Shown piece after piece: positions 28,983-59,542 of a DNA stretch of 64,000 nucleotides. The DNA lies in the NCBI GenBank assembly GCA_944380305.1, contig CALWHF010000002.1, positions 105,154 to 169,153 on the forward strand. Reading direction: 5' to 3'. The position numbers and the translations under genes are program-made. How positions within the stretch are numbered: position 1 is the stretch's first letter; every line of letters starts with the position of its first letter. The notes beneath the pieces were generated by a model. That model saw nothing but the letters and a program-made list of their open reading frames with translations, was not told the origin of the DNA and ran no database searches. This DNA comes from an uncultured Christensenellaceae bacterium (GTDB taxonomy: Bacteria; Bacillota; Clostridia; Christensenellales; UBA3700).

Positions 28983-29136
28983 TTTTAAAATACCCCCTTA
29001 ATTATAAAACAAGCAAAAATATAGCTAATATTTAAATATATTTTATATATAATATCATTTTAAGTCAAGATTTCCTTTATCAATTAGATAAATAAAACTA
29101 ACATTACAATTTAATTACTCATAAACTTTAATATAA

Positions 29137-31523: not shown

Positions 31524-31549
31524 GTTTCACCTGCCATATTTTGCAATAT

Positions 31550-36116: not shown

Positions 36117-36189
36117 ACTGCGCAAAATCTGCATCGGGCGGCTTGCATATTAAAGGTGCTTGCCGCCTTTTTTCAAAGGAGGTATAAAC

Positions 36190-37314: not shown

Positions 37315-37324
37315 GAGGCTGCCT

Positions 37325-38230: not shown

Positions 38231-38232
38231 CT

Positions 38233-39615: not shown

Positions 39616-39758
39616 AAACGGTAAAAAGAATTGTTGCGATTGTTCTTGTTATCGTTACGGCAGTAGCGGTCGGCTACCTCGTCTTTACGGGTAACCGACT
39701 GACTGTCGGTTCGGAACATACAACCGCTTATCTTTCAGAGAGGTGTTTATATGGATAA
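39612..39758 (+). CDS. Small single-pass membrane protein (48 aa)
   Basis: MKTVKRIVAIVLVIVTAVAVGYLVF... RBS AGGAGGAACAA. ATGA overlap with the upstream stop. Confidence 0.5.
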   Translation: MKTVKRIVAIVLVIVTAVAVGYLVFTGNRLTVGSEHTTAYLSERCLYG

Positions 39759-41859: not shown

Positions 41860-41874
41860 TACGGAGGTGATAAT

Positions 41875-43157: not shown

Positions 43158-44618
43158 TTAATATTTTTTTGCTATCAGTGAAATAAATTTCTCTGCATCT
43201 TCTTTATTGTATTCTTGAGATATTATATCAAATACTCTTTCAAGTATTGTCTTTTGCTGTATGGTCAATTTATCATTGATGTTTAACGCACTATATTTTG
43301 TTAAAGTTTTTTGCATATGTAACAATTTTGCAATTGTTCCAAAAAAACTTTCATCTGCAACTGATGACGACTCATCTATATCCATAAGAACCGATTCACT
43401 CATTTCTTCCATCATTTCCAGTGTTTCTGTATTTAGTCCATTTATATCTTCATTATCTAAAATGCTAAGTTTATCCTTTGATAAGCTTCTTTCAGAAGAT
43501 TTTTTACGGATATCTTTAGTTATATTGCTTGCCCATTCCTCTATTAAATCTACAAAGCTATAATACGCATTATTTTTTTCAAAGTCATCTCTTCTAGAAT
43601 TAATTATTAGTTCAGGATCAATTATATAAATTTCACCAATAAGCCACCCGTTAAATCGTTCTTCTTTAAAAAAATGATTACAGGTCGATTTCCCACCGAC
43701 TAAAATATTGCCTTGACGAATTCGAATGCCTTTTATTTGATTATCCATAATGGTGCCCATATAATTTGTATTTGCATACCATAAAATAGCAGCCATTTTT
43801 TCGTCTTTACATAATGGAACAATTTCTACATCTTGTATTGTATCAAATATCTTTTTCACTCTATCAGCTACAAATGTGTTTTGATATGGTTTATATAGAT
43901 CTTGTTTTTCCCCATCCACATTTAAAATAACTCTATAGCAATCTATGTGGTATCCTATATTCTTAATTTTCTCATTGATTAATGAGCCCCAATTAAAATC
44001 ATTATTGAAAGGCAACGGACAATGTTGAACCAAATAATCTTTTACTTGTTCGCAATCTATAAGCTTATCTGCCATATCAACACCCTCAAGTATTACTTCG
44101 AAATAATGACTTGAAATTTTCTCAGGTGAAAATTCAATCGTAACGATTTCGTTGATTACAGATTTAATGCTCATTTCAGTTTCGTTACCCATAAGCAATA
44201 ATCGTTTTAGCTTTTTTGCATCAAATTTGATTTTTACTTTATTATTTTCATTTAATGCAGATGTAATAAAGGTTAAAGTATCACAATAACCCAAACCTGA
44301 CAATCTGCCAATTCCTCTAAACCCACGAGAAACTTGCCTGTGCTTTTGAGAGTTCCCAATATCCAATAAAGTTCTTACAGCTTTTTCGCTCCTAATTCCA
44401 ATGCCGTTATCTTTGATTGATATAGCTTTTTTATTTGTGTCAAGACAAACCTCAATCTTTAAATCATTTTGACCGCATAAACCTTCTTTAATTGTTTCAT
44501 CGAAAGAATCAACTGCATTTTGTATATACTCTCTATATAAGTCAAAAGGAGAAGCATACATTCCATTAGTCAAAGACTCCAACGTATACTTTCCAACCAT
44601 AAAATCCAATTCCATCAT
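43158..44618 (-). CDS. GHKL (Hsp90/MORC-like) ATPase, paralog 2
   Basis: YIQNAVDSFDE (N box), IKDNGIGI (G1) and GFRGIGRLSGLGY (G2). Clear paralog of 56955-58475, sharing VGKYTLESLT.GMY...YREYIQN.VD. Has a 4-nt ATGA overlap with the radical SAM gene. Confidence 0.8.
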   Translation of the reverse strand: MMELDFMVGKYTLESLTNGMYASPFDLYREYIQNAVDSFDETIKEGLCGQNDLKIEVCLDTNKKAISIKDNGIGIRSEKAVRTLLDIGNSQKHRQVSRGFRGIGRLSGLGYCDTLTFITSALNENNKVKIKFDAKKLKRLLLMGNETEMSIKSVINEIVTIEFSPEKISSHYFEVILEGVDMADKLIDCEQVKDYLVQHCPLPFNNDFNWGSLINEKIKNIGYHIDCYRVILNVDGEKQDLYKPYQNTFVADRVKKIFDTIQDVEIVPLCKDEKMAAILWYANTNYMGTIMDNQIKGIRIRQGNILVGGKSTCNHFFKEERFNGWLIGEIYIIDPELIINSRRDDFEKNNAYYSFVDLIEEWASNITKDIRKKSSERSLSKDKLSILDNEDINGLNTETLEMMEEMSESVLMDIDESSSVADESFFGTIAKLLHMQKTLTKYSALNINDKLTIQQKTILERVFDIISQEYNKEDAEKFISLIAKKY

Positions 44619-46648
44619 TCATCCTCATCAAAAAGTGTAATCTGATTGTACATTTGAGTTAGTGAGAGCTTTATTTGTTCAATCAAATACTCAACGCCAA
44701 CATTTTCATCTTTAGCTTGCTTTATCAGTGATGTTTTGAATTCTTCCATTTTGTCCAATAGTAATTCTTTTGCATTGGAAGAATCCAACTTTTTGATTGA
44801 ATCTATTAAAATCTTTTTCTCTTTCGATTTTAAAATACCTGCATTTATAAACAAATACGCACTTTTGACTATATCGTAATTAAACGTTTTAATATGGGTT
44901 TTAGCCTGTATTTTTGCCAAACTTCCTATAATAAATGGCGGTTCTGAGCCTTCAAAAGATAACTCGGCAAAAATATCATTTACCAATTTTTTTCTAAATA
45001 TTTTATACGCTCCTTCAATATAAGATAGTGGAATCCTTCCTGATGCTATATATCTAACCATTCTTATATAGATTAAAGGAAATTCATTACATATATAATT
45101 TACAATAAACGTAGCTTCATTTCCTTCCAACGTATTTAAAGATTTAAGCAACATTGGCAATGTAAAATAATGAATGAACAACTTTTTATGCAAATCATCT
45201 TTTAACGTAATATATTTTTCTATAGTATAGTTATTATCTCCAATTTCACGAATAAACGCTTCCTTATTATCTCCCAATTGATTAAACAATCTCGTCCATT
45301 CTGCTATATATTTTTGATTTTCGTTCCAAATTTTTAGTCTGCTTTCCAACTCAATTGGAGTTTCATTCTTATGTTCTACAAAATATCCTCTCCAACCAAG
45401 ATGTTCTTCTGGCATAGCTAAAAATTCAAGAAATTGTCTCACATCTTTTCCAAAATCTGCCTCAAAAAAAGAACGTGACGATACTCCTTTCCCTTGTGTC
45501 GGTATCATCATTCTTTGTAACGCTCTAAGATATTTCATATTCCATTTTTTACCAACATATCCTCTTTTTAAATCGGAAAGCGGTATATATCTCATTGGAA
45601 ATGAAAACAAAGTTATTTTATATCCTAATTCAGCACTTAATTCCTCACATAAATCTAACGATATTTTCATCCTGCAATACAAATCCTCAGGTGTATCGGC
45701 ATGATAATTATGACCTTTTCCTTTAAAATCATCTCCATTATAAAGCATATAATTTGACATGTGCGTAATACCATTTTCCGCACATAATCTTATCGCTTTT
45801 TTATATGCCTCAGCATCTTCAATATGGTCAAAAGCAATTCTAGCTGGACGAATTGCAAGTTCACCTAATCTTTTTGCTTTATGAGGAGTTAGAAGAAAAG
45901 CATCTAATCCTTGATTAAAATCAACATATCTTTTAACCTTTTTACCTGTTTTAGGATTTGTGTATGTAGCACCTTTGGCAAATCCCAACTCTTTAATCTC
46001 GTCAACAATTTTGTCAAAATCTGGCGATCTAAGAACATTATTATCCATTAAAAGCAAATCTTTTTTGGGACCAAATTTTTTTTCTATAAATCTTATGCTA
46101 TCTTTAATTGACAAATATGGAATATATTCTGGCTCAAGTGTTTGCACTGCACAAAATTGACACTTCATTCCACACCCTCTGGTCATATATGTGAAATAAG
46201 CATCGTGTGCAGGATAAACGTATTGATCCGAAATATCGTCTAATATACTATAATCCAAAGGCATAGTATCTACACATTCTTCACCTTTTAACCCCAATGT
46301 CCCCGTGTGATTTAAAAGTCCAGTATTATTTTTTACCGTAGGAAAATTTTCTGCAATAAGTTCTGGCATAAGAGTCGCCAAAATTCCTCCGGTATAAACT
46401 TGTGTCGGATCCTTAACTATGGATAAAGCATATTCAAGTGCCTTTTTTGTGTTTTCCCATTCAAAAGTAAAAAGCGTTGTTACATATACCCTATCCCATT
46501 TCTTGTCTTTGAATGCATCAGGTAACTTCCCTTTAGCAAATCTAACATAATCCCCGATAATATATTTATGAAAATACGATATTTTCATAAGACCCATTGG
46601 AGGATATTTATTTGAATATCCTGGTTCCAATAAAAGTATATCTGCCAT
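44615..46648 (-). CDS. Radical SAM enzyme with N-terminal B12-binding-like (Rossmann) domain
   Basis: YMTRGCGMKCQFCAV carries the CxxxCxxC motif. The N-terminal ILLLEPGYSNKYPPMGLMKISYF...VYVTTLFTF...TGGILATLMPE resembles the cobalamin-binding-type domain of class B radical SAM proteins. 677 aa. Confidence 0.82.
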   Translation of the reverse strand: MADILLLEPGYSNKYPPMGLMKISYFHKYIIGDYVRFAKGKLPDAFKDKKWDRVYVTTLFTFEWENTKKALEYALSIVKDPTQVYTGGILATLMPELIAENFPTVKNNTGLLNHTGTLGLKGEECVDTMPLDYSILDDISDQYVYPAHDAYFTYMTRGCGMKCQFCAVQTLEPEYIPYLSIKDSIRFIEKKFGPKKDLLLMDNNVLRSPDFDKIVDEIKELGFAKGATYTNPKTGKKVKRYVDFNQGLDAFLLTPHKAKRLGELAIRPARIAFDHIEDAEAYKKAIRLCAENGITHMSNYMLYNGDDFKGKGHNYHADTPEDLYCRMKISLDLCEELSAELGYKITLFSFPMRYIPLSDLKRGYVGKKWNMKYLRALQRMMIPTQGKGVSSRSFFEADFGKDVRQFLEFLAMPEEHLGWRGYFVEHKNETPIELESRLKIWNENQKYIAEWTRLFNQLGDNKEAFIREIGDNNYTIEKYITLKDDLHKKLFIHYFTLPMLLKSLNTLEGNEATFIVNYICNEFPLIYIRMVRYIASGRIPLSYIEGAYKIFRKKLVNDIFAELSFEGSEPPFIIGSLAKIQAKTHIKTFNYDIVKSAYLFINAGILKSKEKKILIDSIKKLDSSNAKELLLDKMEEFKTSLIKQAKDENVGVEYLIEQIKLSLTQMYNQITLFDEDE

Positions 46649-46677
46649 ATTTCTTCTCCTAATTCTTCTCCTAAGTT

Positions 46678-48327
46678 TTACTTAATAGTACTCAATATAT
46701 ACAAATAATATCTAGCTCTTGTTATTGCAATGTACTCTCTACTTCTTATTAAAACATCTTTTGGAAGTTTTTCGTATTCATTTTTTATATATATAATAAT
46801 ATCAGCTTCTAAACCTTTAAATTCTTCTACAGTTTTAAAGCAAATCTCATTATCATTAATTTCAGATAATTGTTTAAACGATATGTCATATCCTCCAATT
46901 CTAGTATCATCTGCCAACACAGAATCCTTAAAAGATTCATTCGAAAGAATGACAATAGATTTTGTTTGAACATACTCTTTCTTCGTAAGCCTATTTACTA
47001 TATTCGTTAATGATTTTAATGTTTGTTTACCACTCCTATACGTCATTATTTCTGGCTGAACTCCTAACAATGTATTTGCTATAGTATCTGAGCCAAGATT
47101 AGTTCTGTCCACTGCGCACTTGTAAATACATCCAGTATTTCTAATGTTATATCTTAGTATAAATGGCGGGTACTCAATTGCAAAAGCATTTTCAAAATGT
47201 TTTGAAAAAATATTTTGATTCTCGTCATAAAATACATATAAATTCGATTTTTTTTCATCTTTTAAAAGTGCTCTTACAGATAATCCCATATCTATATCAA
47301 AATCTTGCGCTTCATCGACAATTATCGAATCGTAACGCGTTTTAATTTTATCGTTATTAAGATAATCAAAACAACAGCGACTTCCGTTTTCATTAGTTGG
47401 GATTTTATAATAATCCTCTCCTAGAATTTCAAGCATTACTTCCTCGTATGTACAGCATTTAAACAATTCATCACTATCAACCTTCGAATTTACAAAATTA
47501 GCCAATTCTTTATTACAGCATAGAAACAAAACCTTTCGATTTAATATAATATCTCTTTTGGCTTTTTTTATTGCAATGTATGTTTTACCCGTTCCTGCTC
47601 CTCCGATAATTTTTACTTGTGGATAGTGAAATAAAATATCCAAAACACTATCTTGAACAAAATCTATTTTCGCAAATTCTTTTTCTTTTATTGGTATCAA
47701 TGCACCCGCAGCCGCTGATAAAGATATTCTCTTATTTACGACATTAATAAAACGATTTCTTTGGTCAATAGAAAATGGCGTATTGATATTTCGATTATTT
47801 TTCCAATAATGAAATATTTCATTAATTTTTTTTGCAAGACTTTTCATGTCTTTTATATCTATGGTAAGATCATCAGGAGCATCTTGAGCTAAAGAATTAT
47901 CTATAGCATAATTTGGAAAAGCAACAGCATATCCATATACACCTTTAAAATTCAAATTAAACTCTTCCGAAAAATAATCGTAGAAATGCCTCATACTTTT
48001 TTCAGCTTGATAATAAGGACTGCATTTTAATTCTCTTCTAGTGTTTGTATCTCCGTCGTATGTTTCGTTAAGATACCATATACCATTATCGATTTCAATG
48101 CCTGTTCCACCTTTTACTTCAATTGTTAAAAAACCGAATTGCGGATCAAAAACAAGAAAATCACATTCGCTATCTACTCGTTTATTTTCACTGTCTTTTT
48201 CAAACCATCTAATTGAATAAAACACCTGCATTCTATCCGGAAGCTGATCTTGAAATGCATAATATATGTGTTTTTCGCTTAAAGTGCAATCGTAATTTGC
48301 CAAGTCAGACGGATGCATTATTGCCAT
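46678..48327 (-). CDS. NERD-type PD-(D/E)xK nuclease fused to SF1 (UvrD-like) helicase (Nhi-like architecture)
   Basis: ECDFLVFDPQFGFLTIEVKGG (NERD), IIGGAGTGKTYIA (Walker A), IIVDEAQDF and AITRARYYLYIL. ATG 48327 follows GGGAGG and lies 2 nt after the upstream stop. Confidence 0.83.
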   Translation of the reverse strand: MAIMHPSDLANYDCTLSEKHIYYAFQDQLPDRMQVFYSIRWFEKDSENKRVDSECDFLVFDPQFGFLTIEVKGGTGIEIDNGIWYLNETYDGDTNTRRELKCSPYYQAEKSMRHFYDYFSEEFNLNFKGVYGYAVAFPNYAIDNSLAQDAPDDLTIDIKDMKSLAKKINEIFHYWKNNRNINTPFSIDQRNRFINVVNKRISLSAAAGALIPIKEKEFAKIDFVQDSVLDILFHYPQVKIIGGAGTGKTYIAIKKAKRDIILNRKVLFLCCNKELANFVNSKVDSDELFKCCTYEEVMLEILGEDYYKIPTNENGSRCCFDYLNNDKIKTRYDSIIVDEAQDFDIDMGLSVRALLKDEKKSNLYVFYDENQNIFSKHFENAFAIEYPPFILRYNIRNTGCIYKCAVDRTNLGSDTIANTLLGVQPEIMTYRSGKQTLKSLTNIVNRLTKKEYVQTKSIVILSNESFKDSVLADDTRIGGYDISFKQLSEINDNEICFKTVEEFKGLEADIIIYIKNEYEKLPKDVLIRSREYIAITRARYYLYILSTIK

Positions 48328-48329
48328 TA

Positions 48330-50210
48330 TTATTCCTCCCAAAAACCTATCGTTTTCTTTTTTGTTTCCTTATCTACATGCCCGATAATATAAGAACGGT
48401 CAAGATCTTTATTAAAATGCACACATGAAACTTCATTTAAAAATAAACACCCCGTACAGGCTTTATATCTTTCTATGCAAATCGGATCAAAAACACATTT
48501 TTGTGCCAATGCAGCTGCTCTAAAAATCCATTTGTCAAAATATGCTTCAAATAAATTTCGAAGAGAACCCAAGCTAAAACCTTGAGAATTCTGACAATAA
48601 ATCAAAATAGCTGGCACGCCTGCAAATATATACTCAGACAATGAATCTTTCCCTAATCCCCCAATTTCAGCTGCTGCTTTAATTAATAAATGAGATATAG
48701 AATGAATCAACCTGTATACATGAAATGTTTCCGGTGTCTCTGTTTCTTCTATTGATGTAAATTTACGAACGCTATCGGGTTTTATATTGTTAATGAACCA
48801 TAATTTTAATTCATATTCCGACTCCAAATTTGGAGCAAATTCTTTTTCAACAAAATTGTTCTTTAACAACCATTCCATAATCATTCTTCTATCTAACTCC
48901 AACAAAATGCCTTCTGTGTTCGTTTTTATAGCATAAATATTCTTTTTGCCTCTTACCTCTTCTTTTAAGGCATGCAATTGCACTCCGGATTCATATTCAC
49001 TTTTTACGCGTGTAAAGCCATAAGAACAGGCAATAAAAGGGATTTTATCGCAAACTTGAGCCGATTTTATACCAAATTTATGCGCAATATCCCAAAAGCA
49101 TTCTGGATTAGCATTTGTATTTAACAATTTTGCTACTTTTATTGCATCATCTAATGTGGATACATCATGGAGATCTTTGACCATATTGTATTCTAAAATA
49201 GATTCTGACACTTTTGCTACATTTGCCATAGTATTAATTAATTGAACTTTAATTTCGTCAACTATTTTATTGTAAGAGTTTCCACACTTTTTTTCAGCAA
49301 TTATTAATGCAGCTATTTTAGCCTGCGTTTCGTCTTTTAACGCAGTTAATAACATTTTATAATGTTCATCAAATATTTTTTGAAACTCGTCATCATCCGT
49401 AGTTATACCTTCTTTAATTATTTTATTCAATTCTTCTTTTGTAATTTTCTCTAACCAATGCGCAAGAACAATAAATTTCCCATAATCTTTTACATTTATA
49501 AAATCTTCAAGCTTTTCGTCAATTAGATCAATCAAACTTAAACTATATGTAAAAAATTGTGAAGGATCTAGCGCATGTTTTGGTCCTAGTTTTCTTCCAC
49601 AAATAGGGCAAGTAACAGTCATATTTATTTTCCTATTACACCCCTGAGCAGTACATATAAAGTTATATTTTCCATCCCATTTTATATACTTACTACCGTG
49701 AGTAGGACACTCAACAGGATGCTTATCTGTAGCATAACCGCATTGGCAAAAATATATTTGTCTAAACTGTGTGAGTTCCACTCCACACGAATAACATTTA
49801 TGATGTCTTTTATAGTCTTCGGCACTTTTAAACTGATAAACTTTTTTACATTTAGGGCAATAAAAAGTTAAAGGGCTTATGCTTGCCACAATTCCTCTTT
49901 CCTCATCTGATGCCTTTGGAGTTAATACATCACAATTATTTTCGTTTAACTCTGTTCCAAAACCAATCGTTGGCGGAAGCAAGGGATTTCCGTATAAACC
50001 TTGTTTATTAAACGATTCTACTTCTTGATTAACCGTCCTGATTAATCTTTTACTATTAATTCCAACTAATTTTTCACTGTTCCATCTTTCAACTTTCGCA
50101 ATATATTGCTTACGTTCTTTTCCTCGTACTGAAAAATCTATCCATGATTCTGGTAAATATTTGTATAACGATTGGGTTTTTCCTCGTTTCATTTGTCTAT
50201 CTGTACTCAT
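48330..50210 (-). CDS. drmB: DUF1998-domain protein, DrmB-like
   Basis: Central Cys-rich zinc-ribbon cluster (CPKCKK...CYSCG...CPTHG...CPICG). C-terminal HSISHLLIKAAA...CVFDPICIERYKACTGCLFLNEVSCVHFNKDLDRS is the DUF1998-type motif. Lies 15 nt downstream of the helicase gene. Confidence 0.7.
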   Translation of the reverse strand: MSTDRQMKRGKTQSLYKYLPESWIDFSVRGKERKQYIAKVERWNSEKLVGINSKRLIRTVNQEVESFNKQGLYGNPLLPPTIGFGTELNENNCDVLTPKASDEERGIVASISPLTFYCPKCKKVYQFKSAEDYKRHHKCYSCGVELTQFRQIYFCQCGYATDKHPVECPTHGSKYIKWDGKYNFICTAQGCNRKINMTVTCPICGRKLGPKHALDPSQFFTYSLSLIDLIDEKLEDFINVKDYGKFIVLAHWLEKITKEELNKIIKEGITTDDDEFQKIFDEHYKMLLTALKDETQAKIAALIIAEKKCGNSYNKIVDEIKVQLINTMANVAKVSESILEYNMVKDLHDVSTLDDAIKVAKLLNTNANPECFWDIAHKFGIKSAQVCDKIPFIACSYGFTRVKSEYESGVQLHALKEEVRGKKNIYAIKTNTEGILLELDRRMIMEWLLKNNFVEKEFAPNLESEYELKLWFINNIKPDSVRKFTSIEETETPETFHVYRLIHSISHLLIKAAAEIGGLGKDSLSEYIFAGVPAILIYCQNSQGFSLGSLRNLFEAYFDKWIFRAAALAQKCVFDPICIERYKACTGCLFLNEVSCVHFNKDLDRSYIIGHVDKETKKKTIGFWEE

Positions 50211-50225
50211 AGTCGGCTCTCCATT

Positions 50226-53200
50226 TTATCCTAATTCTATTATCAATTGCTGATCGGTATCTCTTAAATTGTTCATTATTCTATACCCTAAAATATTAAA
50301 ACCTTCAAAGATGTTTTCGTTTAACCAGTTTCTATCAATAATCGAATCAAAAAAATTGTTAACGAAATCATCTATGCTTTCCTTATATTGATTTCCAACA
50401 TCAACAATTACCTCACCCGACATACATCCATACGCTGAATATAATTCATTTTTAACATTTTCTTTATTGATATTTCCTTCTTTAATAGCCTTTTTAATGT
50501 TTTTCATGTAAAACAGATTGCCAAAAACATATTGCAATTCTGGATCATATTTGTTTAAAAGTAAACCTGAAAAAATACCTGGCAACGTTTCATTAATTGC
50601 TTTTGTCGCCCATCTGTTTATAGGAACTGGTTCTACCATAATATCCTTGAACTCATGAAATTTTATAAAATTCCTCAAGTAACTCTGATCAGTTTCTCTT
50701 GTAGGTCTAATTATATCAATCACAATACTTGAATATTTTCGTCCTGTTCTTGAATATGCTTGAATATATTCTGCAGTATTCCCAGGTATTCCATAGAAAA
50801 ACATAATGTTAAACCTGTCTGCGTCCACACCATGAGAGATCATTGATGTCGCAGCAATAAGATTAACTCCTTTAAAAACATCTTTAGCGTTTTCAACTTG
50901 AGCAAGTACTTCTCTTACATCTTGAAATGTCTCATCTCCTGTCATTTTGCGAGTTATAAATGGAACGATGCCTTCCTTTTGAAGCTCAAAATTAATAGGC
51001 GTTTCCAATGCACCTTCCACATTATTGCTATCTCTTTTTACATTGTTATACTCAAGGAAAATCCAATAATCTTCCAATATTTTTTGTACATCTTGTATTG
51101 AATCTATCCCTATATTCGGAATATCCAATACAAGCTGTGGATTAGCCAAATATCTGTATACGACTTGCCTCATATATTTTAATGAATAAACCACGGAATT
51201 TATAATTGCTTTTCCGTAAGGCGCATATCCAAGAATTAATCGTTGATTGTCATTTTCATCAATGAATGAATAAAAATTCTTGTTTAAATATGGCGATTCA
51301 CAGGGAAACCTTAAAGGATCTTTTCCGTATAATTGAGTTATTTGCGCATCGTATGAAGATATCGTTGCCGTTGCTCCAATTATTTTTATTTTTCTTTTTG
51401 ATTTGGAAACATTTTGCACAAAATAATCAATAAATGATTCATAATGAGAAGCATATGTTCCCAATGATTCTCTAATCAGATGCAATTCGTCTTGAATAAA
51501 TAATGTTGGAGCGGGATCATACATATCAACTTCTTGATAATTCTGAACTTCTACATCACAAAATTCTTTACTTACTATACAACGACAAGATGAAGTGTAT
51601 CCGTGTTTAGGGCATCGCATAGTAGCTCCTGAGAGTATGTTCCGAAAATTCGGATTGTTTCCTAAAATTGCTAATTTATCTACCGTACTTATAATTGCTG
51701 AAGGCAAATACCTATATATCTCACTATCAACCATATAAATAGGCAGTATTTTACCTGAAGTGCATTCAGGATTGTCACAATAATGGATTAATCTGTAAGT
51801 ATTTTCATCAAAATCCAAATGAACCGTCTGTTTTCCACAAAACGGACATATATCAATGATCCGTTCTTCATCCTTCTCGTCCTGAGACATATTCCTATAG
51901 CTTTTTACTCTAGCCTCACCTATTTTATTTGGAGTATTGTTATCTCCGACAAAATACCCTAACGAAAACTCTTCTGTATCCTTAATCTCACTTATTGAAC
52001 GTCTTAATAATTCTGCTTGTGCTAAAGTATTTGCTAAACGTTGCACTTGCTGCACTGAAAGAAGACGTAGAGGATATCTTAAAATAGAAGTTACTCCACT
52101 ACTTTTACCTCTAAAGCGGTCAAAAAACAAATTAAATACTAATACTCCTAAAAATGCTTCTGTTTTTCCTCCTCCTGTTGGAAAATACAGTAAAGATACC
52201 CATCCCAAAGTTGTTCTTTCTTTCTCTTCATTAGTCATTAAATTTGGATCACAAGCAACTATGTCTGGTATAAGTGAAACGATGTAAACTATTTGAAATA
52301 GTCTCCATGTATCATATTTTTTCGCAGTGTTTAAAAAAGCTTTATTCATATAAATAAAACTTTTTATAACCATTGGATAATCTTTTATTACCTCTATACC
52401 AAATTTAAATCTATTAATTTCTTGTTCAAATTCTTTTATTTCACTTGAAAACTTTTCACGCCCTGCCTCTGTCAATGAATTCTTCTTTCCCTCGAAATCG
52501 GATTTCCATTGTTTTAGTTCAGAAATCATTTTATTTTTAATTTCTTGTAAAATATCAATAGGTTTGTCTATCAAATCTTGAAATTTGACTGCTAATTTAT
52601 CATTTGTCAATAATCTCTTTTGAATATACGTAGGTAAATGCTCAGTCATTATAGCATTTCTATCTTTATCAAAAGTTATTGAACAATTTGCTCCTATCGC
52701 TTTCTGTTCTTTATTGTATTTGTAATCATCCCTAAAATAATCCAAAACTATAGGGGCGTAATTTGCACCACTTAAAATTACTTCTAACCCGGAATTGAAT
52801 AATGTTTCAATAGAAGTTTTATCTTTATCCTTATTATTAGATTGGTGTGTTTGTAAATTAGATTGTACAGCTGACGTATTAACTAAATTTACACTTATTA
52901 AATATCTGTTTTTAATCTTTTTAACCTTAACGTCAATATATACACTCCAATTTTGGTTAATAATAGGCTCTTTTTTTGCTTTCGTATTTAAAAATTTTGC
53001 ATATGTTTCATCGGATAACAGATCTTCAATAGATGTTTGTTCATACACAACATATTTATATCTAAGCGCGTCTGCATCTAGCCCATCTTTTATCGTTTCC
53101 AAATAACTTTGCAATTGCTGATTATGATAATGATTTTCATCCATTATTCCATAATTCAATAGTTCATCATAAATTTCTAACAATAAAAAGTCAATATTAA

Positions 53201-53666
53201 ACTTATCCTTATGTATTTGAATTTTTTTGTAAACAGGAACTAATTTTATTTTTACTTTCTTTATATCAACAGGATTTTTCTTGTATTCATCTACCAATGT
53301 TTCGAAATCAAAAAAATGCTTTTCAAATCTTGAATTAATTTCATCAAGAAAAGCTTGCCTTTGCTGATCTAATGTCGGATATACACGATAATAAAAATCC
53401 CCTTTAGGATATATACAAAGTTTTGCATTATTAAATTCATGTTCTTCGACATAAAAATCCATACCAACAGATTCGATAAACACGTCTGAGTTGTATCCAC
53501 TTTTATTACTATTGCTCTTGTTCGAGAGTAATTTCCCCACAAAAAATACATTTTCAGGATTTTCATCGACAACAAAATCTGAGTTATCCCCTGTTATTTT
53601 CCCTTTAAAATCCTTTAATATTTGTGAAGCTAATTTCTGTCTAGCTTTAGACAATTCTTTTCCCAT
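50226..53666 (-). CDS. drmA: Large SF2 DEAD/DEAH-type helicase, DrmA-like
   Basis: FPTGGGKTEAF (motif I), FIQDELHLI (II), IIGATATI (III) and AATSMISHGVDADRF...QAYSRTGRKY (V/VI). Zn-ribbon inserts are present (CPFCGK...CDNPEC). The N-terminal region of about 470 aa is unassigned. Confidence 0.72.
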   Translation of the reverse strand: MGKELSKARQKLASQILKDFKGKITGDNSDFVVDENPENVFFVGKLLSNKSNSNKSGYNSDVFIESVGMDFYVEEHEFNNAKLCIYPKGDFYYRVYPTLDQQRQAFLDEINSRFEKHFFDFETLVDEYKKNPVDIKKVKIKLVPVYKKIQIHKDKFNIDFLLLEIYDELLNYGIMDENHYHNQQLQSYLETIKDGLDADALRYKYVVYEQTSIEDLLSDETYAKFLNTKAKKEPIINQNWSVYIDVKVKKIKNRYLISVNLVNTSAVQSNLQTHQSNNKDKDKTSIETLFNSGLEVILSGANYAPIVLDYFRDDYKYNKEQKAIGANCSITFDKDRNAIMTEHLPTYIQKRLLTNDKLAVKFQDLIDKPIDILQEIKNKMISELKQWKSDFEGKKNSLTEAGREKFSSEIKEFEQEINRFKFGIEVIKDYPMVIKSFIYMNKAFLNTAKKYDTWRLFQIVYIVSLIPDIVACDPNLMTNEEKERTTLGWVSLLYFPTGGGKTEAFLGVLVFNLFFDRFRGKSSGVTSILRYPLRLLSVQQVQRLANTLAQAELLRRSISEIKDTEEFSLGYFVGDNNTPNKIGEARVKSYRNMSQDEKDEERIIDICPFCGKQTVHLDFDENTYRLIHYCDNPECTSGKILPIYMVDSEIYRYLPSAIISTVDKLAILGNNPNFRNILSGATMRCPKHGYTSSCRCIVSKEFCDVEVQNYQEVDMYDPAPTLFIQDELHLIRESLGTYASHYESFIDYFVQNVSKSKRKIKIIGATATISSYDAQITQLYGKDPLRFPCESPYLNKNFYSFIDENDNQRLILGYAPYGKAIINSVVYSLKYMRQVVYRYLANPQLVLDIPNIGIDSIQDVQKILEDYWIFLEYNNVKRDSNNVEGALETPINFELQKEGIVPFITRKMTGDETFQDVREVLAQVENAKDVFKGVNLIAATSMISHGVDADRFNIMFFYGIPGNTAEYIQAYSRTGRKYSSIVIDIIRPTRETDQSYLRNFIKFHEFKDIMVEPVPINRWATKAINETLPGIFSGLLLNKYDPELQYVFGNLFYMKNIKKAIKEGNINKENVKNELYSAYGCMSGEVIVDVGNQYKESIDDFVNNFFDSIIDRNWLNENIFEGFNILGYRIMNNLRDTDQQLIIELG

Positions 53667-53687
53667 AATACACTCCTTTATAACATA

Positions 53688-54980
53688 TCATTTGTTTATA
53701 ATAAAAGATTTTACAGTATTATATTTAATCCCTACTGATTGAAATATTTTATCGTAGGCTTTATCCTGATCAATATTAATTTCGTCTCCATATTTGCTTA
53801 CTATATTTAACGAGAGAATCAATTCTTCTATAGAATTAACAAAAAAAGGCAAATCTTCTGCCAAAACTACAGCATCCTCATAAGGCTGCTTAAATATATG
53901 TTCTACTGATTCATAGTTTATTATTTCTTTAGGAAGAATTTTCTTTGCGCAGAACAAAATTAAATAATCTCTCAAATTATCTATTTCGTTACTATATGAG
54001 ATATTTATAACTTGTTTAAAGATATAATGCCAGTCATTTAAGCAAGCAATATTTATTTCTTCTAACTTTTTAGTGAAATTTAATATATCATCTTCTCCAT
54101 TTTCTCCGCAAGAAATAATTTTGTTAGATATTGCTTCTTTAAGAGTTTCAATTATCTCCTCACAAGAAAGCTGTTTAAAACTTTGTTTGTTATCTCTACG
54201 TTCTTCGCCATAAACTGTATCCAAATCTAAATCGTAAATTTTTCCTTTTATTTCTCCATTAAAGTCAAAATAATCAACTGCTACGGCACTTTTAGATGAA
54301 AATTTTCCAGTTCCTACGATGCCTTCTCCCGCAAACACAACGTCTTCAACTTCAGTGTCGTTTATGTCCATTGACTTTTTTGCTATTAATTTTCCTCCGC
54401 AATATAAATTTTTACATTTTTTTATAGATTCTACTATTAAATCGTTGCCAACTTCAATATGTTCTGCAATTATATTTCCTTCACATAGCAAATTATTGTT
54501 GCAATTTATTTTTTCAGCCTTTATATCTCCTAAAACGGTTAAATTTCCTTTAACTTCTATTTCTTTAGCATTTACATTTCCAATAATAGTAAGATTGTAA
54601 CATGCTCGAATATACTCTGATTTCATATCATCGCCTATAATGGTATACGACTCGTTAAACATTAAAGGAACATTTGAAGAAAAAGCCTGAATCAAGTTTT
54701 TCCCGCCGATTTGAATCTCGGAAGAATCGTATTGTTTTACGCTTGCAGTTGTATTGATATCGTTATTATCTTCCTCTTTTGAAGCTAAAACTTCTTTGAC
54801 CTTGTCATCTTCAATTACTGAAATCAAACCTTTATCAAATGCTTCCATTGCAATGATCTTTTCTCCATTTGCAAATTGGATAATAATTGCGTTTGATGCA
54901 TCATGATGCTTTTTATATGTACCAACTCCAAAAGTTCTATGTTTTAATTTTGTTATATTTTCTATTAAATGCATTTTCAT
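53688..54980 (-). CDS. Protein with N-terminal UvrD/PcrA-CTD (Tudor)-like motif, central bactofilin-like beta-helix repeats and helical C-terminus
   Basis: LKHRTFGVGTYKKHHDASNAIIIQFANGEKIIAMEAF fits the V-x-H-x-x-FG-x-GT...F..GEK pattern. The repeats are NLTIIGNVNAKEIEVKGNLTVLGDIKAEKINCNNNLLCEGNIIAEHIEVGNDLIV. Confidence 0.5.
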   Translation of the reverse strand: MKMHLIENITKLKHRTFGVGTYKKHHDASNAIIIQFANGEKIIAMEAFDKGLISVIEDDKVKEVLASKEEDNNDINTTASVKQYDSSEIQIGGKNLIQAFSSNVPLMFNESYTIIGDDMKSEYIRACYNLTIIGNVNAKEIEVKGNLTVLGDIKAEKINCNNNLLCEGNIIAEHIEVGNDLIVESIKKCKNLYCGGKLIAKKSMDINDTEVEDVVFAGEGIVGTGKFSSKSAVAVDYFDFNGEIKGKIYDLDLDTVYGEERRDNKQSFKQLSCEEIIETLKEAISNKIISCGENGEDDILNFTKKLEEINIACLNDWHYIFKQVINISYSNEIDNLRDYLILFCAKKILPKEIINYESVEHIFKQPYEDAVVLAEDLPFFVNSIEELILSLNIVSKYGDEINIDQDKAYDKIFQSVGIKYNTVKSFIINK

Positions 54981-54984
54981 CCCC

Positions 54985-56949
54985 TCACGTTATAGATTCT
55001 TCTAATAATCTGACATATTCAGATTCGGTTTTGTTTTCAGGTAAAATAATATGTAAAACTTCTTTTGCTCTCGTACAAGCGACATATAAGTTTCGTATAT
55101 CAGAATGTATTTGATCTAGGGTTTCAACAATTTTTTCATCATCGACATTTTGCAAATTTGGCTTTTTCGTTTGTGCATAAAGCCCCAATGGTTTTATTCC
55201 ACAAATAATAGCTGCTCGAAAATCCAAACCTAAGACAGAAGCGAATTTAATTAATTTTACCCCGTCGCTATGCCCGTACCTGACAGCCCATTCATTATCC
55301 GTAGAAAACATCTTGCTATATGGAATTCCGTTTTGCTCTAACTTTGACTCCAATGGCGATTCTAAATCATATTTATTATCCAGCCAGCCATCAATTTTAG
55401 GCCTATAATGAGAATTATACATAATAACCGCAATTTCATCGTATGGTATTTTGTAGAAATCATGGATCTTTTTAATTGACTCTACTACCATTTTCGCTTC
55501 TTCCGAATTGCACGGTGTCTTAAGTTTTTTTATTTCAACACCTTGTCCGTGTGACACAGATTGTCCTCTTAAAAACATATCAGGATCTAAAGCATAGTTA
55601 TCTTGAAAAGATAATAAATACTTTTTTGCATTGCTAACAAATCGATTAATGTATTCGTTTATCTCTACGCAATTCCTGTAATTCTTTTCAATTCTAATGT
55701 TTTTATTTCCACCTCTATAATTGGGATAACCCTCACCCACATTCCATGGTGCTTTTCCGTGTTTCTGCTGATTCTTTAACTTTTGTGTTTTATCTCCACA
55801 TATTACAAAAAGGTGATCATTGCTTTCTTTATTTTCTAATAAATTAAAACATAATTTATACCATTCAGGGTTAAACTCTTGCACTTCGTCAATGAATATG
55901 CCATAAAATCTATCTTTTATTTGACCTTTATTAAATCTTACTATAGCCGTATCTACCCATCCGTCAAAATCGCCATGAGCAACATTAAATCCGTTATTTA
56001 CAAGTAATGTCTTACACAAAACATGAAAAGTCATACATTGAACATTTTTAGCTCTCAATCCTGCTTTATCAATAAACCACTCGTATAACGAACGGAGATT
56101 ATCATTATAACAAGTAATAAGAAACTGTTTTTCAGGATTCATTGCCGCTGCCTTAAAACACTTTGATATCAGCAACACACTTTTTCCCGATCCTGCACAA
56201 GCAAGAATGAGCTGTTCGCCTTTGTTGATTTTATTTACAATATTTATTTGATTTTCATCCAACCTAAATGCCTTAACAACCGAATCATCTTGTGTTACTA
56301 CTAGCATTTCGTCATCCACTCCTGCACTTGACTGTACCGACTTATTAGACACCACTCTAATAGTAACATATTCAGGAGCAATTCTTTGAAGAATTGAGTT
56401 TATATTAGCGTCACTTATTTTGATTCTTTCATTTGACACTTGAGTTATGGGGTATTTTAAATATTTATATACTGCATTTTCAAAAAATGACTCCCTTGAT
56501 TGTGCCAAATTCTCAGAAAACATGCATTTTTCTTGTATGATTTTTTTTAGTTCTTCATCTTTTATACTTGCTACGATATCTTTATAGCTCAGTTTTGGAA
56601 AAACCAATACAATATTAATTGCAATTTTTAATTTTGAGTCACTCCCTACCAACAGTTTATTCCCCGACAATCTGTCTTGGATAGTTTTTGCAACATTCGG
56701 ATATACCATATTTGCATAAACAGTCATTGTTTGTTGGAACATACTAACGTCTTCAAATAAATCGAAAAATTTATACATTACTATTCCTTCTGTCGTTAGT
56801 AAAACATGCATATAATCGTTTTGTTGCATAGCTGGATTAACTCGCAACAAAAAATAGCCATAATCCTCGCTAGACATTGCATGACGAAGAAAGACTTTTT
56901 CAAAACGTGATAATTCTATTTGCTGATAATCAGACGGCAATATCTCCAT
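54985..56949 (-). CDS. SF1 (UvrD-like) helicase with degenerate NERD-like N-terminus
   Basis: ILACAGSGKSVLL (Walker A), IFIDEVQEF, CGDKTQKL and VACTRAKEVLHIIL. The N-terminal DYMHVLLTTEGIVMYKF has the NERD layout but Y-K replaces E-x-K. Confidence 0.8.
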   Translation of the reverse strand: MEILPSDYQQIELSRFEKVFLRHAMSSEDYGYFLLRVNPAMQQNDYMHVLLTTEGIVMYKFFDLFEDVSMFQQTMTVYANMVYPNVAKTIQDRLSGNKLLVGSDSKLKIAINIVLVFPKLSYKDIVASIKDEELKKIIQEKCMFSENLAQSRESFFENAVYKYLKYPITQVSNERIKISDANINSILQRIAPEYVTIRVVSNKSVQSSAGVDDEMLVVTQDDSVVKAFRLDENQINIVNKINKGEQLILACAGSGKSVLLISKCFKAAAMNPEKQFLITCYNDNLRSLYEWFIDKAGLRAKNVQCMTFHVLCKTLLVNNGFNVAHGDFDGWVDTAIVRFNKGQIKDRFYGIFIDEVQEFNPEWYKLCFNLLENKESNDHLFVICGDKTQKLKNQQKHGKAPWNVGEGYPNYRGGNKNIRIEKNYRNCVEINEYINRFVSNAKKYLLSFQDNYALDPDMFLRGQSVSHGQGVEIKKLKTPCNSEEAKMVVESIKKIHDFYKIPYDEIAVIMYNSHYRPKIDGWLDNKYDLESPLESKLEQNGIPYSKMFSTDNEWAVRYGHSDGVKLIKFASVLGLDFRAAIICGIKPLGLYAQTKKPNLQNVDDEKIVETLDQIHSDIRNLYVACTRAKEVLHIILPENKTESEYVRLLEESIT

Positions 56950-56954
56950 AAAGT

Positions 56955-58475
56955 CTATTTCCTGTTTAGTATTTTTATTATCTCATCAATAATCTCATCC
57001 ACTAATTGTTTTGACAATTTTTGCGATAAAATATCACTCACTATTGCAAGAATTTTTTTCGATTTTTTATCTATTCCTGAATTGATTTTATTTATTTTAT
57101 AATTACTACTCTCGCTAACTTCTAAAATGGTTTCATCTATTTGTTTTTGTAAAACATCTTTTTGAGGTTGTAACTCTGGTCTAACTTTTGTTTTTTGTAA
57201 CGCTTCCCCTGCTTCTTTGAGCCTATCTAATAGTCTTGTTTTATCAACAGTCGAATTAAAGCCCTCTTCCATAGCAACTCCTGCATCTCCCACTTGGCGA
57301 GACACATCGTTTAAAACTTTCGTAGAGATATCATTTCTTAAAGATGAGGCTTCTCGTATTTTTTTAGTGATTTCAGAACCTATACTATCTTGCAACTTCT
57401 CAATAAACTTAAAGTATTCAGATGTTTGTTCAAAATCATCCCTTCTTGCATTTGGAATTAGCTTATCTGTTACAACAAATATTTCGCCTTGCGTCCAGCC
57501 ATTAAATCTTGCTTCTTTGAAAATTGAATTTAACGTTCTGTTATCGCCAATTAAAATATTTCCTTTTCTAACTCTTATACCGGAAATTTCATGTTCTGAG
57601 ACAGAGCCATACCAATTACAATCACCATACCACCCCAAAGCGTATAATTCGTCTTCAACTATAACTTTAAAATAGTTCATTTTTAATATCTCATCGTTTT
57701 TCATTCTGTTGCGATCAGAATGATATCGATGCCTGTTTGGCTTGTAGATTGGTTCTAAATCCTCTGGATTTTCTCCAATAAAAATTGGAAACTCTTCCAC
57801 TTTATACCCATTATCTTGAAGAAAAGCATGTAGACTTGAGCTGTAATAGAACTGTCTTGTTTTGTATGGCAAAGGAGCTACTTGAGAAACATAGCTACGC
57901 ACAACATCGATATTTAACAAATCTGAAAATGAGCTTACATTAATCATTTCAACGGTGAAATAATGCTTTTCAGATTTTTCATATTCTTGCTTAACCGTGG
58001 TAACAACATTGAGAACTGCGGATAAATCTAAATCCTCATTTGCTCCAGGAACTAGTAAGTGTCGCAACTTTTTACAGTCGTATGACACAACAGTTTTTAA
58101 ATCTTCCCCATCTGCTGAAGTTGTAAAAACAAGCATATCGCAATAACTCATTCCCCCCAAACGGCCTATGCCCCTGAAGCCTCTATTGTTTGAATGTCGT
58201 TTTTGAGAACTACCGATATTCATTAAAGTTGAAATCGCTTTTTCTGACGATATTCCTGTTCCGTTGTCTTTTATAGAAATTTTAGAATTTTCCTCGTCAA
58301 CAATAATATCTATACGCATACTCTGAGGCTCTATCAAATTCTGAGAGACTGCGTTTTCAAGTGCATCTACACTATTTTGAATATACTCTCTATAAACAAT
58401 TTTCGGATCTGAATACATTCCTGTTGTTAAAGATTCTAAAGTGTATTTGCCTACTTGTATATCAGTATTTAACAT
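56955..58475 (-). CDS. GHKL (Hsp90/MORC-like) ATPase, paralog 1
   Basis: YIQNSVDALE, IKDNGTGI and GFRGIGRLGGMSY motifs. ATG 58475 follows AAAGGAGAAAAGC. The stop lies 5 nt before the helicase start. Confidence 0.8.
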   Translation of the reverse strand: MLNTDIQVGKYTLESLTTGMYSDPKIVYREYIQNSVDALENAVSQNLIEPQSMRIDIIVDEENSKISIKDNGTGISSEKAISTLMNIGSSQKRHSNNRGFRGIGRLGGMSYCDMLVFTTSADGEDLKTVVSYDCKKLRHLLVPGANEDLDLSAVLNVVTTVKQEYEKSEKHYFTVEMINVSSFSDLLNIDVVRSYVSQVAPLPYKTRQFYYSSSLHAFLQDNGYKVEEFPIFIGENPEDLEPIYKPNRHRYHSDRNRMKNDEILKMNYFKVIVEDELYALGWYGDCNWYGSVSEHEISGIRVRKGNILIGDNRTLNSIFKEARFNGWTQGEIFVVTDKLIPNARRDDFEQTSEYFKFIEKLQDSIGSEITKKIREASSLRNDISTKVLNDVSRQVGDAGVAMEEGFNSTVDKTRLLDRLKEAGEALQKTKVRPELQPQKDVLQKQIDETILEVSESSNYKINKINSGIDKKSKKILAIVSDILSQKLSKQLVDEIIDEIIKILNRK

Positions 58476-58650
58476 GCTTTTCTCCTTTCGTTCATATAAT
58501 ATTACTTTTTTACTTCTAGTTTTGGTTGACAACAAAATCCTATATAGGTGCTATAATAAACAATAATTGTGCTTTAATTAAACTTGAAAACTCAATGACC
58601 GATTTTTAACAGCCCCCTTTTCTTCCAATATTTAAATTATAGCAATTTAG

Positions 58651-59160
58651 TTATATTTTTTCAATATGTTTCATATAATAATTATAATTATAATGTGAAA
58701 ACAAATTTATTATTGACTTTTGCTTTGATACAGCATAATGATATGCGATTTTTGTTCCGCTTCTCGCATTCATAGTTTGCACATAATTTTCATCATAATA
58801 AAAAATACAAATATCTGAAATATCTATCATATAAAAATTGCGTTTTACATAAGACGCCTTTCCTGCAAGTTTTACAGAATCAGGCATATATGTTTCATCG
58901 TATATTGTTAGAAGATAATTTTTGTAATCTTCATTTATGTATTGATATTCAGCTCTAACATAAACACTTTTTATATGTGGCCTTATTTCTTTTAACTCCG
59001 TTACCGCTTTTAAGCATATTGTATCGAACTGACTTTTACTCCCGAATAAAAATGTGTTTACTTCATTGGAATCAATTAAATATAACAAATATTCTTTTAA
59101 CCACTGATAGAAACTTTTATCTATCTCGATATCCCGATGTCCAATAAAAGTAGCGATCAT
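58651..59160 (-). CDS. SLOG-superfamily (DUF1273/YpsA-like) protein
   Basis: MIATFIGHRDIEI...FLFGSKSQFDTICLKAV... is a typical DUF1273 N-terminus. RBS GAGGTG. Confidence 0.6.
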   Translation of the reverse strand: MIATFIGHRDIEIDKSFYQWLKEYLLYLIDSNEVNTFLFGSKSQFDTICLKAVTELKEIRPHIKSVYVRAEYQYINEDYKNYLLTIYDETYMPDSVKLAGKASYVKRNFYMIDISDICIFYYDENYVQTMNARSGTKIAYHYAVSKQKSIINLFSHYNYNYYMKHIEKI

Positions 59161-59299: not shown

Positions 59300-59542
59300 T
59301 TGACCATTTGCCAAGCTGTAGCTAAACGCACAAATCAACTTTTAATAGAAAGAAAAATGAGTCAATATCGATTAGAACAAAATTCTGGCATTCAGCACGG
59401 AACCATGAACAGCATCATGAGTGCTAAAAATAAAGGCATTGAGCTCAATACAGTTATGATGATCGCCAGAGGTTTCAATATGACCATAATTGAATTTTTA
59501 GACAATCCTATATTTTCATCTGAATCTTTGGAAATAGAATAA
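59300..59542 (+). CDS. XRE-family helix-turn-helix regulator
   Basis: TTG start after AAGAGGTG. LLIERKMSQYRLEQNSGIQHGTMNSIMSAKNKGIELNTVMMIARGFNMTIIEFL. Confidence 0.72.
   Translation: MTICQAVAKRTNQLLIERKMSQYRLEQNSGIQHGTMNSIMSAKNKGIELNTVMMIARGFNMTIIEFLDNPIFSSESLEIE

Follow-up and report, generated by a model that had tools for sequence, protein, structure and literature searches.

A DrmA-DrmB helicase pair in a conserved, putatively DISARM-derived eight-gene operon with a radical-SAM enzyme

DISARM is understood as a restriction-modification-like defence system in which a methyltransferase marks self DNA. Ofir et al. (2018) are said to define it by a core of DrmA, DrmB and DrmC together with a methyltransferase and either DrmD or DrmE. 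Related helicases of the YprA family occur in other multi-gene systems: ARMADA consists of a YprA helicase, a BrxHII-like helicase and a PglX-like methyltransferase, and TALON also pairs a YprA-family helicase with a NERD nuclease (bioRxiv 10.1101/2025.09.15.676423, Bell et al. 2025). That survey mentions just 'many uncharacterized DISARM-like classes', and neither its text nor its supplements mention radical SAM, GHKL or bactofilin (bioRxiv 10.1101/2025.09.15.676423). We analysed a stretch of 64,000 nucleotides (nt), referred to here as the window, from an uncultured Christensenellaceae bacterium (GenBank assembly GCA_944380305.1, contig CALWHF010000002.1, positions 105,154 to 169,153). It encodes a split DrmA/DrmB-type pair inside an operon whose other six genes are not those of DISARM; searches of full-text literature outside subscription-only papers turned up no description of this operon or of its radical-SAM-GHKL module.

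A defence system built on DrmA and DrmB (DrmAB) is very probably what the locus encodes, and all eight genes probably act as one functional unit. On balance we favour the reading that DrmA-DrmB forms the core of an eight-gene, DISARM-derived defence operon, carried as cargo of low guanine-plus-cytosine (GC) content on a Bacteroidales-type conjugative element. The operon spans 43158..58535 on the minus strand and comprises eight tightly packed long open reading frames (ORFs) in an island of ~16 kb. They are numbered in the order of transcription:

56955..58535, minus strand: g1, Hsp90/MORC-like GHKL ATPase (Pfam HATPase_c_3, 5.8e-14)
54985..56949, minus strand: g2, UvrD-like superfamily 1 (SF1) helicase, 654 amino acids (aa) (Pfam UvrD-helicase and UvrD_C)
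53688..54980, minus strand: g3, weakly bactofilin-like β-helix protein, 430 aa (Pfam Bactofilin 2.8e-4, below threshold)
50226..53666, minus strand: g4, DrmA, superfamily 2 (SF2) YprA-family helicase, 1146 aa (PADLOC, NCBIfam, PDB and cysteine conservation)
48330..50210, minus strand: g5, DrmB, OB/connector/DUF1998 'canopy' subunit, 626 aa (PADLOC, NCBIfam, PDB and Foldseek)
46678..48342, minus strand: g6, fusion of a NERD (PD-(D/E)xK) nuclease and an SF1 helicase, 554 aa (Pfam NERD and AAA_19)
44615..46648, minus strand: g7, radical S-adenosylmethionine (radical-SAM) enzyme, 677 aa (Pfam Radical_SAM PF04055, 32.9 bits, above the cut-off of 29.5)
43158..44618, minus strand: g8, GHKL ATPase and g1 paralogue, 486 aa (Pfam HATPase_c_3, 2.2e-10)

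A first-pass annotation of the window had proposed that g4 and g5 are a split helicase and DUF1998 pair of the DrmA/DrmB type. Both ORFs are as it described them, 1146 and 626 aa long and separated by 15 nt, and the three helicase motifs and the zinc-ribbon inserts that it reported were all located in g4:

52152..52181, minus strand: PTGGGKTEAF motif, residues 496-505
51480..51491, minus strand: DELH motif, residues 726-729
50739..50762, minus strand: QAYSRTGR motif, residues 969-976
51558..51848, minus strand: zinc inserts

The inserts are two cysteine clusters between the RecA lobes (C607/C610/C630/C635 and C685/C696/C703), 100% conserved across 26 homologues, one haloarchaeal class-2 DrmA included. 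The PADLOC DrmA model PDLC02576 matched g4 with an E-value of 1.5e-169 over residues 211-1084, and a sequence search of the PDB showed its helicase core to be homologous to that of Serratia DrmA (7s9v_A, 3.8e-50). The NCBIfam model DISARM_DrmAS gave 8.9e-112 and 375 bits, under its curated cut-off of 950, and DrmAL just 236 bits; outside the helicase core, similarity to class 1 is much lower. At 28-31% identity, class-2 DrmA proteins encoded on haloarchaeal plasmids cover g4 from about residue 58 through to its C-terminus. The N-terminal ~470 residues, which had been left unassigned, are thus ordinary DrmA, covered by profiles from about residue 210 and by class-2 homologues from about residue 58. 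The family is abundant, with more than 100 clusters (90% identity) at 65-76% identity to g4 among the matches listed. When DrmA, DrmB and the radical-SAM enzyme served as queries for homologues, the best 120 matches listed were all close relatives, at least 63% identical; the more distant contexts described below come from tblastn searches of plasmids and a metagenome scan.

Two cysteine-rich regions stand out in DrmB:

49599..49859, minus strand: triple zinc module, residues 118-204
48423..48497, minus strand: DUF1998 cysteine cluster, residues 572-596

The PADLOC DrmB model matched g5 at 5e-62 and the NCBIfam model DrmB_fam at 2e-23 (83 bits, under the curated cut-off of 240). A PDB sequence search returned 7s9v_B (9.6e-5) with an alignment spanning the cysteine cluster, in which the C-terminal CVFDPIC...ACTGC...SC aligns residue for residue with the DUF1998 zinc site; C572/C578/C585/C588 (and C596) are invariant. 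An AlphaFold2 (AF2) model of DrmB was of moderate quality (pLDDT 63.6, on the predicted local distance difference test) and left the C-terminal zinc domain unmodelled; Foldseek searches with it ranked 7s9v_B first and the DUF1998 helicase MrfA (6znp_A) second, with weak scores. Pfam PF09369 (DUF1998, now MZB) did not match g5 even at E<=10, and it is missing from the precomputed Pfam annotations of the best 120 listed homologues. The Pfam model was dropped as a basis for membership, and the PADLOC and NCBIfam models and the PDB alignment were used in its place. The DUF1998-type C-terminus proposed earlier is thus borne out by DrmB profiles, the 7S9V_B alignment and the fold search, but not by the Pfam model, whose failure these three override.

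With matches far above chance, sequence comparison confirms g4 and g5 as a true DrmA/DrmB helicase pair. Because Pfam MZB is silent and both proteins fall under the NCBIfam cut-offs, the pair represents a divergent lineage and not the textbook one. The first-pass annotation had also considered the N-terminal half of DrmB unusually rich in cysteine. The run is real: it forms three four-ligand sites (C118/C121/C139/C142, C155/C157/C168/H171 and C186/C191/C201/C204) that do not vary among 35 subfamily members and reach 93-100% conservation across 30 broader homologues. It is not peculiar, however, since Halomicrobium class-2 DrmB shows the same pattern, and modules that bind zinc have already been described for the canopies of defensive YprA-family helicases, DrmB among them (bioRxiv 10.1101/2025.09.15.676423). 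Neither the zinc ribbons nor the long DrmA N-terminus is therefore special, as canonical haloarchaeal class-2 DISARM DrmA and DrmB share both.

DrmA and DrmB are the only DISARM features of the operon; DrmC, the methyltransferase and DrmD/DrmE, three of the five, are missing. Pfam, PADLOC and NCBIfam models found no methyltransferase, PLD, SNF2 or DrmE protein in the island, and there is no conserved HxK(x)4D motif of the PLD type. Neither [DNS]PP[YFWH] nor PCQ methyltransferase motifs occur in ORFs of at least 150 aa across the window, and the island flanks contain no methyltransferase domain. The variable flanks of six related genome loci likewise hold no methyltransferase, PLD or DrmD/DrmE gene. 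Searches by tblastn with haloarchaeal DrmC had no match in 80 related loci, and those with haloarchaeal DrmE none in related loci. The partners of ARMADA (a helicase like BrxHII and a methyltransferase like PglX) were not found in the operon by Pfam, PADLOC or NCBIfam either. As the first-pass annotation had supposed, then, the setting of the pair resembles neither canonical DISARM nor Druantia; it is an eight-gene operon without the DISARM methyltransferase, PLD, SNF2 and DrmE.

The intergenic distances from g1 to g8 are 5, 4, 21, 15, -13, 29 and -4 nt, g6 overlapping g5 by 13 nt. GC content is uniformly 0.29-0.33 in the island (0.31 overall) against 0.42-0.54 in the flanks. The two GHKL ATPases are full-length paralogues (35% identity, E 4e-103) with conserved N-box (REYIQN..D), G1 (DNG.G) and G2 (GFRGIGRL) motifs, and they match the N-terminal Hsp90/TRAP1 domains in the PDB. 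The listed g1 ORF has 526 aa; its start is probably M21 at 58475, giving the 506 aa of public gene calls, and g1 is kept upstream of g2 in L001-L005 and L008. The g2 helicase matches the PADLOC models C3a187 'NERD+UvrD' (3e-26) and GajB; its Walker A, Walker B and motif VI are conserved, its N-terminal ~200 aa are poorly conserved, and it has no conserved nuclease motif (no NERD-type D...(D/E)xK). The g6 fusion matches Pfam NERD at 6.4e-7 (30.3 bits, above the cut-off of 22.1; domain at about 47956..48279) and PADLOC RTasNERD-Hel at 5e-69, and had no match in a sequence search of the PDB. Its D...ExK motif (DF...EVKGG) and helicase motifs are conserved in 33 homologues. Catalytic motifs are likewise conserved in both SF1 helicases, both GHKL ATPases and the radical-SAM enzyme, and all of these proteins, NERD nuclease included, are likely to be active.

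The β-helix protein g3 holds its position at 27-40% identity. Its relatives range from ~350 to 550 aa, and the possibility that it is truncated in the window was rejected on that natural length range. Its N-terminus resembles the RNA-polymerase-binding Tudor domain of PcrA/UvrD and is a possible Tudor-like domain, and the orthologue in L004 weakly matches DUF3553 (0.002). A 338-aa protein adjoining the array of L054 (L054:16741-17757) matches PcrA_UvrD_tudor. These Tudor-like resemblances hint at a link to transcription complexes.

Upstream of g1, a consensus scan picked out one candidate promoter:

58636..58664, minus strand: candidate operon promoter TTGAAA-17-TATAAT with extended TG (11/12, pattern match alone)

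A 169-aa low-GC ORF without family match (58651..59160, minus strand) lies just upstream of g1, as does a divergent 80-aa ORF of HTH_26/XRE type (59300..59542, plus strand); an HTH_26 protein also precedes g1 in L004. This points to a possible regulator of the operon.

The array is conserved far beyond the window. Each of the six long genome loci (gut Clostridia: Faecousia, Acutalibacteraceae, Gemmiger, Dysosmobacter and two Clostridia metagenome-assembled genomes) holds the full set of eight genes in unchanged order, at 33-68% amino-acid identity, between unrelated flanks with Y-family polymerase, serine recombinase, WYL and helix-turn-helix genes. A metagenome scan with an alignment of the radical-SAM enzyme gave 27 long-type loci whose 10-kb upstream flank is complete, and in 20 of these g2-g3-DrmA-DrmB-g6 lie upstream of the radical-SAM gene. 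The array persists at DrmA identities of 45-49% (L017, L032, L052, L060 and L061), and in L054 the gene set is retained but arranged as two divergent transcription units. Two full-array copies (L057 and L073) have g2, DrmA, DrmB, g6, radical-SAM and GHKL genes all fragmented, decaying together.

A shorter form occurs on plasmid pTA1_2 of Rhizobium ruizarguesonis (L096, 4641-13677), where genes for an SF1 UvrD-like helicase, a DrmA-like protein, DrmB and a NERD-SF1 helicase stand in the same order as in the window, at ~26% identity. This locus, too, is without methyltransferase or PLD; unlike the window operon it has no GHKL ATPases, β-helix protein or radical-SAM enzyme, and its DrmB, unlike g5, scores with Pfam MZB/DUF1998. 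Because L096 carries the four-gene core in the same order without radical SAM and GHKL, the SF1-DrmA-DrmB-NERD core is older and broader than the Clostridial eight-gene form. On a Burkholderia plasmid (L097), a NERD-helicase gene adjoins a C5 methyltransferase gene and DrmA/DrmB genes disrupted by an insertion sequence.

The radical-SAM enzyme g7 begins with a flavodoxin/B12-binding-like domain, followed by the radical-SAM core and an all-helical C-terminal extension of ~230 aa. The cysteines that characterise the radical SAM superfamily are invariant across Clostridia and Alphaproteobacteria:

46151..46174, minus strand: CxxxCxxC motif of g7, C159/C163/C166

Pfam PF02310 (B12-binding) does not match g7 itself and matches three of its relatives below threshold (E~1e-4). 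Matches of the family to NCBIfam models, all far below thresholds, go to PhpK, HpnJ, the MCR Gln C-methyltransferase and RimO. An auxiliary cluster of the methylthiotransferase type was considered and rejected, no N-terminal cysteine being conserved across the family. No PADLOC 2.0 model matches g7 or g8. The family is small and distinct, with 210 clusters (50% identity) at E<=1e-30 out of 1.84 billion, and its members have 540-820 aa.

Of the 62 metagenome loci with room for it, 56 have a GHKL gene directly downstream of the radical-SAM gene; in the window, g8 overlaps g7 by 4 nt and the two are probably translationally coupled. The pair is a portable module, found with or without DrmAB. In a second architecture it comes after genes for a ParB_N-like protein, a protein of ~135 aa, an SNF2 helicase of the DrmD/ZorD-like kind and a Noc/ParB-like protein, with no recognisable nuclease or methyltransferase. 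This six-gene system recurs in L024-L028, L050, L051, L053 and L075 (for example, L025:6041-13477). A third, on alphaproteobacterial plasmids such as pNL1, consists of a DGQHR (DndB/DpdB-like) protein, a shorter radical-SAM enzyme (38% identical to g7 over residues 3-454) and a GHKL ATPase, encoded in that order; the DGQHR neighbours score as DGQHR (7e-45 and 3e-64) and weakly as DpdB/DndB. The partners of the module, DrmAB, ParB/SNF2 and DGQHR, are DNA-tracking components typical of DNA-modification-based immunity.

Triads of the third kind were seen on plasmids and in metagenomes (L009, which is pNL1 58383-68740, L011, L012 and L076-L093). They are often adjoined by a PIN-like and GHKL pair and by a second, larger DGQHR protein, and a ParB_N/helicase cluster occupies the strand opposite the triad in Roseomonas and Bradyrhizobium. 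Two proteins join the module's parts in one chain: P0381 lacks the helical C-terminal extension and runs in frame from the radical-SAM core (residues 201-445) into a complete GHKL ATPase, and P0380 resembles an internal-deletion chimera of the radical-SAM and GHKL genes. Both may be real fusions or artefacts of assembly or deletion.

The flanks encode PcfJ and a PcfK-MutS-I fusion, together with a tyrosine integrase and an AbiE pair, and so mark the backbone around the island as a Bacteroidales-type integrative conjugative element. The close relatives found in reference genomes are all gut Clostridia. Given this contrast between Bacteroidales-type flanks and Clostridia-only relatives, the low-GC island is horizontally acquired cargo. 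The neighbouring genes are as follows:

60184..61500, minus strand: PcfJ-like protein
61504..62424, minus strand: unusual 306-aa fusion of a PcfK-like region and the mismatch-binding MutS domain I
41875..42921, plus strand: rolling-circle-type replication protein (REP_ORF2-G2P), abutting the defence island
31550..32965, minus strand: tyrosine integrase
30023..30655, minus strand: DUF6088 partner of AbiEii
29137..30042, minus strand: AbiEii toxin
27003..28982, minus strand: unrelated GHKL ATPase, 659 aa

The last four lie in a second low-GC patch (27003..32965, minus strand, GC 0.29-0.36), probably another piece of defence cargo or else the same mobile element's integration end. The GHKL protein in it was rejected as a member of the system, being unrelated beyond the ATP-binding fold. 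Within 36160..42921 on the plus strand, four consecutive ORFs (384, 301, 462 and 702 aa) without a Pfam match precede the replication protein.

By homology to Serratia DrmAB, the SF2 translocase DrmA and the zinc-rich DrmB canopy would assemble into a complex that acts as sensor and translocase, loading onto DNA that is single-stranded or incoming and moving along it. The NERD-SF1 helicase-nuclease may take the effector place of the PLD nuclease DrmC and restrict the DNA, with g1-g2-g3 perhaps serving as an accessory motor or clamp unit. The most speculative step is the last, in which the radical-SAM enzyme and its coupled GHKL ATPase would act on DNA and lay down a non-canonical covalent mark, standing in for the missing methyltransferase in self/non-self discrimination. 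That the enzyme acts on DNA at all we rate a little short of an even chance. A self-mark is our leading hypothesis for its role, because the module is always found with DNA-tracking proteins and contains the sole potential covalent modifier, yet we put it forward only tentatively.

The lineage is large and widespread, with true DrmA and DrmB, without methyltransferase or PLD nuclease, and locked to six other genes; it is represented in gut metagenomes by more than 100 clusters at 90% identity and has spread from Clostridia onto a Bacteroidales-type conjugative element. It raises the question of how DrmAB escapes autoimmunity without methylation. One conceivable reading, which we hold with considerable doubt, is that radical-SAM and GHKL proteins form the catalytic core of an unrecognised superfamily of DNA-modification-based immunity in which the radical-SAM enzyme marks self DNA. 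The mark might then be, for example, a methyl group or some other change introduced at an unactivated carbon, a possible chemistry that we suggest with the same reserve; interchangeable trackers (DrmAB, ParB/SNF2 and DndB/DpdB-like DGQHR) could read or deliver it, an equally provisional idea. If true, the window operon would be a 'class 3' DISARM that uses radical chemistry in place of a SAM-dependent methyltransferase. Action of the radical-SAM enzyme on DNA would mean both an epigenetic mark of a new class and a novel enzyme activity; failing that, the operon is still a compact model for cooperation among SF1/SF2 helicases, a NERD nuclease and MORC/Hsp90-like clamps.

Several points weigh against this picture of a DrmAB system with a radical-SAM self-mark. 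The function of each gene is assigned from homology or gene neighbourhood, and the AF2 models are moderate in quality (pLDDT 64 for DrmB and 72 for g7). The core of g7 is poorly modelled, a sequence search of the PDB with g7 gave no match, and its fold search gave no significant one (best MiaB, E 0.04), so that its structure allowed no substrate class to be assigned. The g7 family also lacks conserved auxiliary-cluster cysteines. The ParB/SNF2 architecture has no recognisable nuclease, which means that a modification-plus-restriction logic is not evident in all three architectures. The L096 core, without radical SAM, GHKL or methyltransferase, implies that DrmAB/NERD may need no self-mark; if so, the radical-SAM module would be an add-on of another kind. 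Finally, transfer of an island en bloc could account in part for the synteny conserved among gut Clostridia.

The alternative that survives best, though we judge it unlikely, starts from that add-on. DrmAB and the NERD-helicase would be a modification-independent defence, and the radical-SAM-GHKL pair a second effector that might damage invading DNA by radicals or, in the manner of prokaryotic viperins, produce a small molecule or a modified nucleotide. Viperins are established radical-SAM antiviral effectors, which counts in its favour, as do the UvrD-like, DrmA, DrmB and NERD-helicase genes of L096 and the ParB/SNF2 architecture, where the radical-SAM enzyme could itself be the effector for want of a recognisable nuclease. 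However, g7 and its relatives are built unlike viperins, with an N-terminal B12-binding-like domain and 540-820 aa; their weak matches go to B12/radical-SAM methylases and methylthiotransferases, and their constant partners DGQHR and ParB belong to modification modules in Dnd and Dpd. An unregulated DNA-damaging radical enzyme would, moreover, poison its host.

Quite unlikely, in our estimation, is that the eight genes are two or three independent systems (GHKL, UvrD and g3; DrmAB and NERD-helicase; radical SAM and GHKL) that travel together as an island. Parts of the array do separate: of the 27 long-type loci whose upstream flank is complete, 7 have the radical-SAM-GHKL pair but no DrmAB, DrmAB with NERD-helicase occurs without the pair in L096, the L054 set is split over two divergent transcription units, and PIN-like and GHKL pairs form a separable unit too. 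Yet order and orientation are identical in all loci of the DrmA subfamily with enough flank, down to ~45% DrmA identity, and the array stays constant while the flanks are unrelated. The genes overlap or sit 4-29 nt apart, none of the loci in hand has this DrmA subfamily without radical SAM-GHKL, and the decayed copies L057 and L073 lose all genes together.

An ordinary class-1 or class-2 DISARM, with its methyltransferase, PLD and DrmD/DrmE encoded elsewhere or missed, is largely refuted and very improbable. The strong scores with DISARM DrmA/DrmB models and the class-2 DISARM identity of the nearest annotated relatives, whose canonical operons carry PLD and a C5 methyltransferase, would fit it. 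Against this, the missing genes are absent from the island, the 64-kb window and the flanks of six related loci, both proteins fall under the NCBIfam equivalog cut-offs, and six other genes are conserved where the DISARM parts would be. Most improbable of all is that the operon serves housekeeping DNA repair in the way of MrfA/MrfB (YprA): DrmA and DrmB do share the YprA family with the repair helicase MrfA, the second fold match being 6znp_A, but the operon lies on a low-GC mobile island whose flanks are unrelated in each genome, with a conjugative-element backbone, AbiE and other defence-like genes nearby, PADLOC defence models match it far better than anything else, and the split DrmA/DrmB architecture is the defence-branch form (bioRxiv 10.1101/2025.09.15.676423).

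Among described systems, class-2 DISARM stands closest to the DrmAB-centred operon. The plasmid locus of Halomicrobium urmianum (L010; DrmE-DrmA-DrmB-DrmC with the DrmMII C5 methyltransferase) likewise has split DrmA and DrmB genes; its DrmA is 31% identical to g4 over 94-95% of the length, and its DrmE-DrmA-DrmB-PLD operon encodes the same DrmA zinc inserts and the same triple cysteine module in DrmB. The window operon differs in having no DrmE, PLD nuclease (DrmC) or DNA methyltransferase and, unlike class 2, in having a pair of SF1 helicases, of which one is fused to NERD, as well as two GHKL ATPases, a β-helix protein and the radical-SAM enzyme. Class-1 DISARM of Serratia (PDB 7S9V/7S9W) shares a homologous helicase core and DUF1998 cysteine cluster with g4/g5, and adds the SNF2 protein DrmD, the N6-adenine methyltransferase DrmMI and DrmC, all three missing here.

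Druantia fuses helicase and DUF1998 in DruE, accompanied by DruA-D or DruH, whereas the window has two genes and no Dru partners; the PADLOC DruE model reaches only 12.8 bits here (E 0.0042). Druantia DruE, ARMADA, BRIGADE and TALON likewise place a YprA-family helicase with zinc modules at the centre of a multi-gene defence operon, with DUF1998 fused and a BrxA-like insert in the helicase, in contrast to the split pair here. Class B radical-SAM enzymes and MiaB/RimO resemble g7 in their flavodoxin-like N-terminal domain followed by a CxxxCxxC barrel; the helical C-terminal extension of ~230 aa is unique to g7, which has no conserved auxiliary cysteines. Finally, relatives of the radical-SAM-GHKL pair adjoin DGQHR proteins, the kind to which DpdB of Dpd and DndB of Dnd belong, and also ParB-like and SNF2 proteins, as in modification-based immunity. 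The module brings no tRNA-guanine transglycosylase (TGT; DpdA), 7-deazaguanine synthesis genes or DndACDE, leaving the radical-SAM enzyme as the sole candidate modifier, and the window operon has DrmAB in the place that DGQHR holds in those systems.

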